37,733 bases of DNA from Escherichia coli (GTDB lineage Bacteria > Pseudomonadota > Gammaproteobacteria > Enterobacterales > Enterobacteriaceae). Position numbers and translations under genes: made by a program. The DNA is taken from assembly GCF_003334355.1 (NCBI RefSeq), contig NZ_QOWP01000034.1; one strand, given 5' to 3'. This document shows, one piece after another, positions 24,282 through 26,508 of this stretch. The notes beneath the pieces were generated by a model. It saw only the letters and a program-made list of their open reading frames with translations. It was not told the DNA's origin and made no database searches. Each line of letters begins with the position of its first letter. The first letter of the stretch is position 1.

Positions 24282-24539
24282 AATAATTGCCGGGTCTACG
24301 GCCCGGCAGTTAATCAGATAAATTCCGACAATATTAAAAAATAAATTTCAAATACCAGTAATTCACCTTATATCTCATTTCGACTTCGATCACATATCGA
24401 CAAATAATATTATTTCATCTATTTTTCTCATTATTTTTAATCACCATTCTATTTTAAAAACAGTATGTCACTTATAAATGACGCCGTTTAAAATTCGTTT
24501 AGAAAATACGTTTAACGATAATTAAAAGGATTCTGTTAA

Positions 24540-24829
24540 ATGAAATTAAAATAGTTGCGGTGGTTGTAACTGGTTTGTTAGCTGCGAACGTAGCACACGC
24601 TGCCGAAGTCTATAACAAGGATGGTAATAAACTCGACCTTTATGGCAAGGTTACCGCTCTACGTTATTTTACTGATGATAAGCGTGACGATGGTGATAAA
24701 ACTTATGCCCGTCTCGGCTTTAAAGGAGAAACGCAAATCAATGATCAAATGATTGGTTTTGGTCACTGGGAATATGATTTTAAAGGCTATAACGATGAAG
24801 CCAACGGCTCGCGCGGCAACAATCTCTGA
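24540..24829 (+). pseudogene. yddL: Porin (OmpC/NmpC family) N-terminal fragment, disrupted in the signal peptide and truncated
   Basis: ATG AAA TTA AAA TAG at 24540-24554 gives MKLK-stop. In the -1 frame from 24560 the sequence continues as the remainder of a porin signal peptide and the mature N-terminus [17 protein letters not shown]...[15 protein letters not shown], then stops after about 89 codons. No beta-barrel body follows. Confidence 0.8.
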
Positions 24830-24888
24830 TTGAGTTAAGTGCCCATCACAATATGATCACTGACCTTATATTACACAATCATCCCAGG

Positions 24889-26184
24889 ATGAAAACAATC
24901 ACTTTAAACGACAACCATATTGCACATTTAAACGCCAAAAACACTACAAAACTGGAATATTTAAACTTAAGCAATAACAATTTACTGCCAACCAATGACA
25001 TTGATCAACTAATATCATCAAAACATCTTTGGCATGTATTAGTTAACGGCATCAACAATGATCCACTTGCACAAATGCAGTACTGGACTGCAGTAAGAAA
25101 TATAATTGATGACACTAATGAAGTGACCATTGATTTATCAGGACTTAATTTAACCACTCAACCACCAGGGCTGCAAAACTTCACCTCTATCAATCTTGAT
25201 AATAACCAACTCACACATTTTGATGCAACCAACTACGATAGACTCGTAAAGCTAAGTCTGAATAGTAATACTCTTGAGTCAATAAAATTTCCTCAAGGCA
25301 GAAATGTAAGTATTACACATATATCTATGAATAATAATGCTCTCAGAAATATTGATATAGATAGGCTTTCATCAGTTACTTATTTTAGTGCGGCACATAA
25401 TCAACTAGAGTTTGTGCAATTAGAATCTTGCGAATGGCTGCAATACCTGAATCTCAGCCATAATCAATTAACTGATGTTGTTGCAGGTAATAAAAATGAA
25501 CTCTTACTGCTGGATCTATCCCATAATAAACTAACAAGTTTACACAATGACTTATTTCCCAACTTGAATACGTTACTTATTAACAACAATTTGCTTTCTG
25601 AAATTAAAATATTCTATAGCAACTTCTGCAATGTTCAGACATTAAACGCTGCTAACAACCAGTTGAAATATATAAATCTTGATTTCCTGACTTATCTTCC
25701 ATCTATCAAAAGTTTAAGACTGGACAATAATAAAATAACCCACATTGATACTAATAATACATCCGATATTGGAACTTTATTCCCCATAATAAAACAGAGC
25801 AAAAACTTAAATTTTTTAAATGTTTCTGGGAAGAACAATTGCCCTACTATGCAGCTCATGTTATTTAATTTGTTTTCCCCAGCACTTAAGCTTAATACTG
25901 GCCTGGCAATTCTTTCGCCTGGTGCATTTGAAGTTCACTCTGACGGAATAGATGTGGATAACGAATTGTTTCACTATCCTATTAATAAAGCATATACCCC
26001 ATATAATATACACACTTACAAGACAGAGGAAGTTGTAAACCAGAGGAATATAAAAGTTAAAAACATGACCTTAGATGAAATAAACAATACTTACTGTAAT
26101 AACGATTATTACAATCAGGCAATAAGAGAGGAACCGATAGACCTTCTGGACAGATCGTTTTCCTCCAGTTCATGGCCTTTTTAG
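24889..26184 (+). CDS. yddK: Leucine-rich-repeat protein (bacterial LRR, YopM/IpaH-LRR-like repeats) with a non-LRR C-terminal tail
   Basis: Uninterrupted frame, with the ORF-track start at 24853. I prefer ATG 24889 (MKTITLNDNH...) because CAGGA lies 5-9 nt upstream. At least 10 tandem repeats of about 20-22 aa with the LxxLxLxxNxL pattern (e.g. LEYLNLSNNNL, LQYLNLSHNQL, LLLLDLSHNKL). GC content is visibly lower than in flanking genes. The last 111 codons (from Met at 25849) have exactly the length I recall for K-12 yddJ. Confidence 0.65.
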   Translation: MKTITLNDNHIAHLNAKNTTKLEYLNLSNNNLLPTNDIDQLISSKHLWHVLVNGINNDPLAQMQYWTAVRNIIDDTNEVTIDLSGLNLTTQPPGLQNFTSINLDNNQLTHFDATNYDRLVKLSLNSNTLESIKFPQGRNVSITHISMNNNALRNIDIDRLSSVTYFSAAHNQLEFVQLESCEWLQYLNLSHNQLTDVVAGNKNELLLLDLSHNKLTSLHNDLFPNLNTLLINNNLLSEIKIFYSNFCNVQTLNAANNQLKYINLDFLTYLPSIKSLRLDNNKITHIDTNNTSDIGTLFPIIKQSKNLNFLNVSGKNNCPTMQLMLFNLFSPALKLNTGLAILSPGAFEVHSDGIDVDNELFHYPINKAYTPYNIHTYKTEEVVNQRNIKVKNMTLDEINNTYCNNDYYNQAIREEPIDLLDRSFSSSSWPF

Positions 26185-26508
26185 TGAATAAATCATCACT
26201 AATTCTATAAGTGTCTGGTCTTGTTGATAATATAGTTAATATGTAACCCTTTAGATTCACGATCTGAAGGGTTGAAACATGACATACGTTCAAAGATTAA
26301 CCCTCGTTTGAAGGTTAGCTTGTTAGTTACATTTAGTAACACATATCTGGCTACTTAATCCCCATTCTGCCCCCGCGGTTACGCTTTCTTATCTATTCTT
26401 TCAATCAGCACTTCACCCAATTCATCCTTAATTCTAATAACTGGCTATTGCGCCTTACCTCGTGTTTTGTCTTTTTTTCATTACCAATGTGTGCATGTGA
26501 GGAACAAT

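Follow-up and report, generated by a model that had tools for sequence, protein, structure and literature searches.

The window analyzed here, a 37,733-nucleotide stretch of Escherichia coli DNA (assembly GCF_003334355.1, contig NZ_QOWP01000034.1), carries an AT-rich islet between the genes yddG and narU, and most of that islet is taken up by a 443-codon open reading frame (ORF) rich in leucine-rich repeats (LRRs). The ORF is a chimera of two effector-type LRR gene fragments left by two deletions. The explanation that we favor, and regard as highly probable when taken as a whole, is that the islet is a short, eroded form of O-island 62, and that the chimeric ORF within it is most likely non-functional and drifting.

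In strain EDL933, the long form of the island spans about 4.1 kb (L002 2585-6727) and contains a porin gene, an upstream LRR gene and espR1. Window positions 24282-26466 align with it as three collinear blocks, with 1,536 bp of the long form missing between the first and second and 635 bp between the second and third. Deletion 1 (1,536 bp, EDL933 L002 3043-4578) left Junction 1 at 24814..24822 on the + strand, as placed by three-way alignment with the left and right sequences of EDL933, L005, L007 and L017, and this junction coincides with an imperfect direct repeat of 9 bp, CGGCAA[C/G]AA. Deletion 2 (635 bp, EDL933 L002 4905-5539) falls between two 12-bp CATTGATTTATC repeats; Junction 2, at 25128..25139 (+), is the same 12-mer that stands at both ends of the deleted segment in EDL933. 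This 12-mer encodes the residues IDLS of an LRR in both parental genes, and because it lies in the same codon phase in each, the upstream LRR gene is fused in frame to codon 67 of espR1.

These two deletions at short direct repeats produced the form seen here. With deletion 1 went three quarters of the porin gene, the intergenic stretch that holds the promoter and ribosome-binding site of the upstream LRR gene, and ~186 codons from the start of that gene. Deletion 2 took away the 3′ end of the upstream gene, the intergenic stretch that holds the ribosome-binding site of espR1, and espR1 codons 1-66, and it joined one LRR array to the other in frame. What remained open is the 443-codon ORF, read from an internal methionine.

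Each portion of the ORF can be traced to its parent. Positions 24823..25127 (+) are an internal segment of the upstream LRR gene (z2240/z2241 in EDL933, orf1600 in enteroaggregative E. coli (EAEC) strain 042), covering its codons ~187-289 with 94-98% nucleotide identity to E. coli long-form alleles, and supply ORF codons 1-92. At the protein level, the first 96 residues of the ORF match residues 197-292 of the complete 419-residue upstream protein (P0029). Residue 1 of the ORF is thus the internal Met197 of that protein, whose first 196 residues are missing. Positions 25140..26184 (+) hold espR1 codons 67-417 and the stop codon, with ~94% nucleotide identity to espR1 over 1,045 nt. In a BLASTP comparison, 317 of the 351 residues at positions 93-443 of the ORF (90%) are identical to residues 67-417 of EDL933 EspR1; the first 66 residues of EspR1 are gone. 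This match bears out the suggestion, made in the original prediction from the letters alone, that the repeats are of an effector type. A direct parent of the espR1 portion was looked for among five long-form alleles, but the portion is about equally distant from all of them (93-94% identity), and the parental allele is not in that sample.

Two observations on the LRR genes themselves may be added here. O157 carries a frameshift in the upstream LRR gene, whereas four other long forms, the divergent contig L017 among them, have it as a clean 419-codon ORF. At L005 3029-4288, L006 2455-3714 and L007 3029-4288, the NCBI annotation pipeline (PGAP) marks only a 288-bp "partial pseudogene" inside this ORF, which looks like an annotation gap. 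In the window, a 12-nt motif, CATAATCAACTA, occurs three times at an exact 63-bp spacing (25396-25533). This spacing reflects the 21-residue LRR unit at the DNA level, and the recurrence of the motif shows how much short direct-repeat substrate for deletion the gene holds.

The frame at 24853..26184 (+) runs through 443 codons with no internal stop, as first described. Its product is RefSeq WP_087899506.1, which the NCBI pipeline names only as a generic LRR protein. The original prediction read codons 330-333 as TGC CCT ACT ATG (25840-25851), which is correct, and stated that the same frame is split into yddK and yddJ in K-12. The MG1655 annotation agrees: it lists yddL, yddK (957 bp, 318 residues) and yddJ (336 bp, 111 codons, flagged as a pseudogene). 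Alignment also confirms that yddJ is residues 333-443, the rest of the frame from the ATG at 25849. The equation of yddK with residues 13-330 was a numerical coincidence. In the base-by-base alignment, yddK and the window ORF share their start codon, the ATG at 24853, and yddK stops after codon 318; the two products are 98-99% identical over codons 1-317. Nor does the break lie near codon 331, where it had been expected, but in a run of A residues at 25801..25805 (+), codons 317-318. The window has five A residues here and K-12 has four, and the 1-bp loss ends YddK at ...QSKT. This strain has simply not yet gained the homopolymer frameshift that splits the frame in K-12. An intact gene of full length, which had been offered as one reading of the open frame, is not what the alignment reveals: the ORF is a chimera of two deletions that begins at an internal methionine and has lost both native N-termini and the ribosome-binding site.

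The islet itself occupies 24366..26322 (1,957 bp, not assigned to a strand) within the yddG-narU intergenic region, adjoining narU on the upstream side of that gene. Its limits were set by alignment with L004, a genome in which the site is empty (yddG-272 bp-narU): flanking sequence is shared as far as 24365 and again from 26323 onward. The islet has a GC content of 0.339 and the remainder of the window one of 0.512; measured against every other stretch of 1,957 bp, the z score of the islet is -6.3. Sliding values stay between 0.31 and 0.39 along the segment and between 0.46 and 0.59 in its flanks, and GC at third codon positions is 0.33 in the 443-codon ORF and 0.52-0.53 in yddG and narU. The AT-richness that had been remarked on is therefore real, and the composition is that of foreign DNA, not of the core genome. 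Horizontal acquisition, also proposed earlier, is supported by this deviant composition together with a presence/absence polymorphism at a fixed core-genome site, with the islet missing from 1,119 E. coli genomes. Neither an integrase, a tRNA site nor flanking direct repeats were found at the islet boundaries, and an Rfam scan gave no match inside it. No donor could be identified, the LRR family having no relatives outside Escherichia and Shigella. Downstream of the espR1-derived part, a non-coding 3′ tail of the island (26185..26322, +) is 80-95% identical to long-form alleles and is absent from empty-site genomes.

The islet also contains a porin fragment, yddL (24540..24829, +), that had been overlooked. 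It comprises the N-terminal ~90 codons, signal peptide included, of an OmpC/OmpN-family porin gene, and matches the NCBIfam porin OmpC model over profile positions 9-89 of 368 (1e-33). The full porin in EDL933 has 366 residues and scores above the OmpC subfamily cutoff. In the window, yddL reads ATG AAA TTA AAA TAG (24540-24554), a frameshift at the fifth codon due to loss of one A from the run at 24548-24551. Strain PSS-12 shares this lesion, which is absent from the ten other short-form alleles sampled.

The arrangement as a whole matches O-island 62 (EDL933 z2239-z2242, EAEC 042 orf1599-1601) and K-12 yddL-yddK-yddJ in its yddG-narU site, its AT-richness and its collinearity, at 93-99% identity. 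The window has the K-12-type short form, with 1,536 and 635 bp fewer than EDL933. It differs from K-12 in keeping the five-A run (A5), and thus one frame, and in the extra yddL frameshift.

We surveyed 5,426 complete E. coli genomes for these states. The fused Junction 2 that marks the short form was present in 3,129 of them, counted by full coverage of an 81-bp query across the junction. The long form occurs in about 1,000-1,100 genomes: the block removed by deletion 1 was present in 1,119 and the block removed by deletion 2 in 1,001. A clean empty site was found in 1,119 genomes, CFT073 included. The K-12 four-A (A4) frameshift was found in 1,753 records by an exact 80-mer, amounting to ~56% of fused-form carriers, and the A5 allele in 1,931 records by an exact 81-mer, a count that includes some long forms such as L006; strains PSS-12, E7476 and O26 RM8426 carry the A5 allele. 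Among eleven short-form alleles compared in detail, four are intact and seven carry the A4 deletion. These seven share a linked indel at 26301 and thus represent one haplotype, and two of them have acquired further lesions (a 1-bp deletion at codon 202 in one case, Q270 changed to a stop in the other).

O-island 62 also decays by other, independent routes. At L006 832-2285, an IS1 insertion has cost the 3′ end of yddG and the 5′ end of the porin gene. In Shigella flexneri, a deletion joins the upstream LRR gene to the NarU C-terminus (P0037). A third route is seen in a 387-residue variant of the fused ORF (P0002), which has lost about two LRRs in frame.

The protein encoded by the ORF was described at first as almost entirely LRR. 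This holds for residues ~10-325, and Pfam finds LRR motifs and nothing else, in line with the earlier statement that no enzymatic domain is present; the final ~110 residues contain no LRRs and form an orphan region. The profile and structure searches that had been suggested were informative for the LRR core only. AlphaFold2, run on a 10-sequence alignment, predicts an LRR solenoid with confidence over residues ~90-340 (predicted local distance difference test score, pLDDT, 80-94), while the first 90 residues, derived from the upstream gene, score 24-58 and the last ~100 about 25. Foldseek hits in the PDB are generic LRR solenoids (Leptospira LRR proteins, SHOC2, SDS22, internalin A) and define the fold class only. 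Among 1.84 billion representative proteins, an exhaustive search with the C-terminal 143 residues retrieved nothing but pieces of proteins of this family, which gives no hint of a biochemical activity.

The closest named relative is EspR1 (WP_000671689.1), with which window residues 93-443 share both the LRR array and the orphan, family-specific C-terminal region. Collinearity with the 417-419-residue EspR1 does not extend over the full length. The first 66 residues of EspR1, the N-terminal region where a type III secretion or translocation signal would be expected, are replaced in the window by 92 residues from the middle of the neighboring gene, and the native ribosome-binding site is lost with them. 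NCBIfam has no family model for EspR1 or for the upstream gene, and the identification of EspR1 does not depend on a hidden Markov model cutoff. The primary paper on EspR1 is reportedly that of Tobe and colleagues from 2006. NCBI names the espR1 product "T3SS effector leucine-rich repeat protein EspR1", and EspR1 has been used as an effector of enterohemorrhagic E. coli (EHEC) (PMC5599653).

Likeness to the IpaH/SspH/SlrP and YopM proteins is limited to a bacterial effector-type LRR array. Among curated families, SlrP matches best, through its LRR region (E = 1.5e-8) and with a score of 33 bits where the cutoff is 1,113; the NEL E3-ligase domain was not found in the ORF by Pfam, and the SlrP model matches the LRR region only. 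The C-terminal region is unlike anything outside its own family. The N-terminus of the upstream parental gene has been reported as IpaH-like (Okeke et al. 2011, PMC3079680). K-12 YddK is the prototype of the IRREKO class of LRRs (Matsushima et al. 2010), and the window ORF is nearly identical to it, with the 21-residue unit LxxLxLxxNxLxxLxLxxxxx, its nested 10/11-residue periodicity and the 63-bp spacing in the DNA. This class is a repeat type, not a functional family.

Several lines of evidence suggest that the fused ORF is a pseudogene. Type III secretion signals reside in the N-termini of effectors, and both parental N-termini are gone from the fused ORF, along with both parental promoters and ribosome-binding sites. 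No Shine-Dalgarno sequence precedes the ATG at 24853: the duplex with the anti-Shine-Dalgarno sequence is worth -0.9 kcal/mol, compared with -5.6 for native espR1 and -6.2 for narU. A consensus scan for promoters and terminators returned 12 promoter-like sites against 11 by chance in shuffled sequence, and is uninformative in DNA this rich in AT. The segregating sites among the short-form alleles comprise 13 nonsynonymous and 3 synonymous changes, close to the neutral expectation of 3.85:1 calculated from the codon composition of the ORF, and this ratio differs from that of the long-form gene divergence (Fisher p = 0.05 and 0.017 in two comparisons). Inactivating lesions recur in the population. 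The fused ORF therefore appears, from its substitution pattern, to be drifting neutrally. It is most likely a non-functional relic; we infer a lack of both expression and function.

A number of observations weigh against this conclusion. Subtracting the A4 records from the fused forms leaves the ORF still open in up to ~1,370 genomes (3,129 minus 1,753), including LEE-positive O26 (LEE, locus of enterocyte effacement). The polymorphism sample is small, with 16 sites in 11 alleles, most of which are already frameshifted. Compared with espR1, the fused ORF has a pairwise dN/dS of 0.28-0.39, below 1, although this mostly records history before the fusion; the flanking genes yddG and narU have values of 0.02-0.05. 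Finally, an in vitro study lists an "internal promoter" of yddLKJ as bound by RNA polymerase holoenzyme (PMC3946193), and yddK appears in K-12 overexpression and transcriptome lists, which makes some transcription possible.

An alternative is that the fused ORF is a working gene for a new chimeric LRR protein kept in A/B1-type E. coli, either cytoplasmic or a type III substrate (of LEE in O26-type strains, of the second type III system ETT2 or the flagellar system elsewhere), with K-12 carrying a loss-of-function variant. We consider this unlikely. The uninterrupted frame, the many A5 records, the in-register fusion of two LRR arrays at the IDLS motif and the confidently predicted solenoid core would all suit a working gene, as would the low dN/dS and the possible internal promoter. 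Such a gene would have to be translated from an internal methionine with no Shine-Dalgarno sequence, and its product would lack both native N-termini and begin with 90 residues of low predicted confidence. More than half of the carriers share a frameshift, some with secondary lesions on top of it, the 13:3 ratio fits neutrality, and the neighboring yddL is decaying too. A stronger version of the idea, that microhomology fusion of two effector LRR arrays made a new protein that is expressed with a function of its own in ~1,300 A5 genomes, LEE-positive O26 included, is more doubtful still. If true, it would make the fused protein a case of gene birth by repeat-mediated deletion caught in the act, not one of simple decay.

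Less probable again is that the frame is kept open for a non-coding reason: the AT-rich DNA might, for example, be bound by H-NS and act on narU as a silencer or promoter context, or it might encode an RNA. The very low GC content and the position of the islet immediately upstream of narU would be compatible with this, but the 1,119 empty-site genomes keep narU without the islet, Rfam has no match there, and nothing links an open reading frame to such a role.

Neutral decay of an O-island 62 remnant also agrees with the direction of change. On the internal evidence of the sequences, the long form is judged ancestral to the short form, because the porin gene is complete and strongly constrained there while only a stub is left in the window, because both LRR genes are complete and moderately constrained there, because the divergent contig L017 has the full three-gene set at the same site, and because both junctions bear the short repeats expected of deletions. 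Values of omega (dN/dS) in the long form are 0.02-0.14 for the porin gene, indicating strong purifying selection, and 0.16-0.56 for the LRR genes (L005, L006, L007 and the divergent L017, all at yddG-narU). L017 is an Escherichia-like contig whose flanks are 94-95% identical to those of E. coli and whose three-gene arrangement is complete.

The polarity was argued from internal evidence since an outgroup scan gave no usable species. In that scan, which used one genome per species and exact-peptide seeding that limits its sensitivity, no representative of another Escherichia species matched. The sole matches were two short contigs, one 99% identical and labeled as a Bacillota metagenome-assembled genome (L018, JAEWSH010000114.1), the other 93% identical and labeled as Terrisporobacter mayombei (L019, NZ_JAHZMP010000230.1). 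These were rejected as true carriers and are almost certainly E. coli contamination. As a separate observation, the upstream LRR gene of L017 (3255-4514) is only 84% identical to E. coli alleles in nucleotides and 72% in amino acids (dS 0.36, omega 0.4), unlike the flanks and espR1 of the same contig, which are both 94-95% identical; either this allele is exceptionally divergent or it was brought in by recombination long ago.

The opposite polarity, with a short ancestral form growing by insertions, or a K-12 form produced by disruption "by insertion of yddK" (Okeke et al. 2011, PMC3079680), is highly improbable even though the short form is the commonest state (58% of genomes), as every base of yddK-yddJ is matched by collinear long-form sequence at 94-98% identity with no inserted DNA, the porin of the short form is truncated and its ORF begins in the middle of a gene, a full, constrained porin and two complete genes would have to be rebuilt by two independent insertions, and short repeats at both junctions are typical of deletions.

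Elsewhere in the window, fdnG on the - strand is represented by two ORFs (22581-23168 and 20121-22532) split by an in-frame TGA. The Rfam model SECIS_3 matches at this break (22528-22586, 84 bits), which is the ordinary selenocysteine site of formate dehydrogenase-N.

The locus had been singled out at first as an element of unknown function, but it is not unstudied. Both the locus and its mosaic nature are already published: Okeke et al. 2011 (PMC3079680) described the mosaic as O-island 62 and judged the EHEC and EAEC forms to be ancestral, and YddK is the IRREKO prototype. The new details are the precise derivation by two deletions and the probable scoring of the remnant as espR1 when isolates are screened for virulence genes. 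Virulence surveys list "espR1", including in turkey E. coli producing extended-spectrum beta-lactamase, and one calls espR1 a LEE regulator (PMC12502693, PMC12737783). One of them counts "espR1" among the type III secretion genes of 38 out of 39 cattle isolates, mostly B1 and LEE-negative (PMC12502693). Survey calls of this kind in LEE-negative A/B1 isolates are probably matches to the yddK-yddJ remnant, because one B1 O26 genome carries the short form and because the remnant is ~94% identical to espR1 over 1,045 nt.

The biological weight of the finding is small. The islet is a textbook case of how microhomology deletions and homopolymer slippage whittle down a small island after its acquisition, and the decay occurs in lineages mostly without the matching secretion system. 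The two-deletion model should replace the account of an inserted yddK (PMC3079680), with yddK-yddJ understood as a chimera of the upstream LRR gene and espR1. "espR1" calls that derive from the remnant should not be counted as evidence of an effector.

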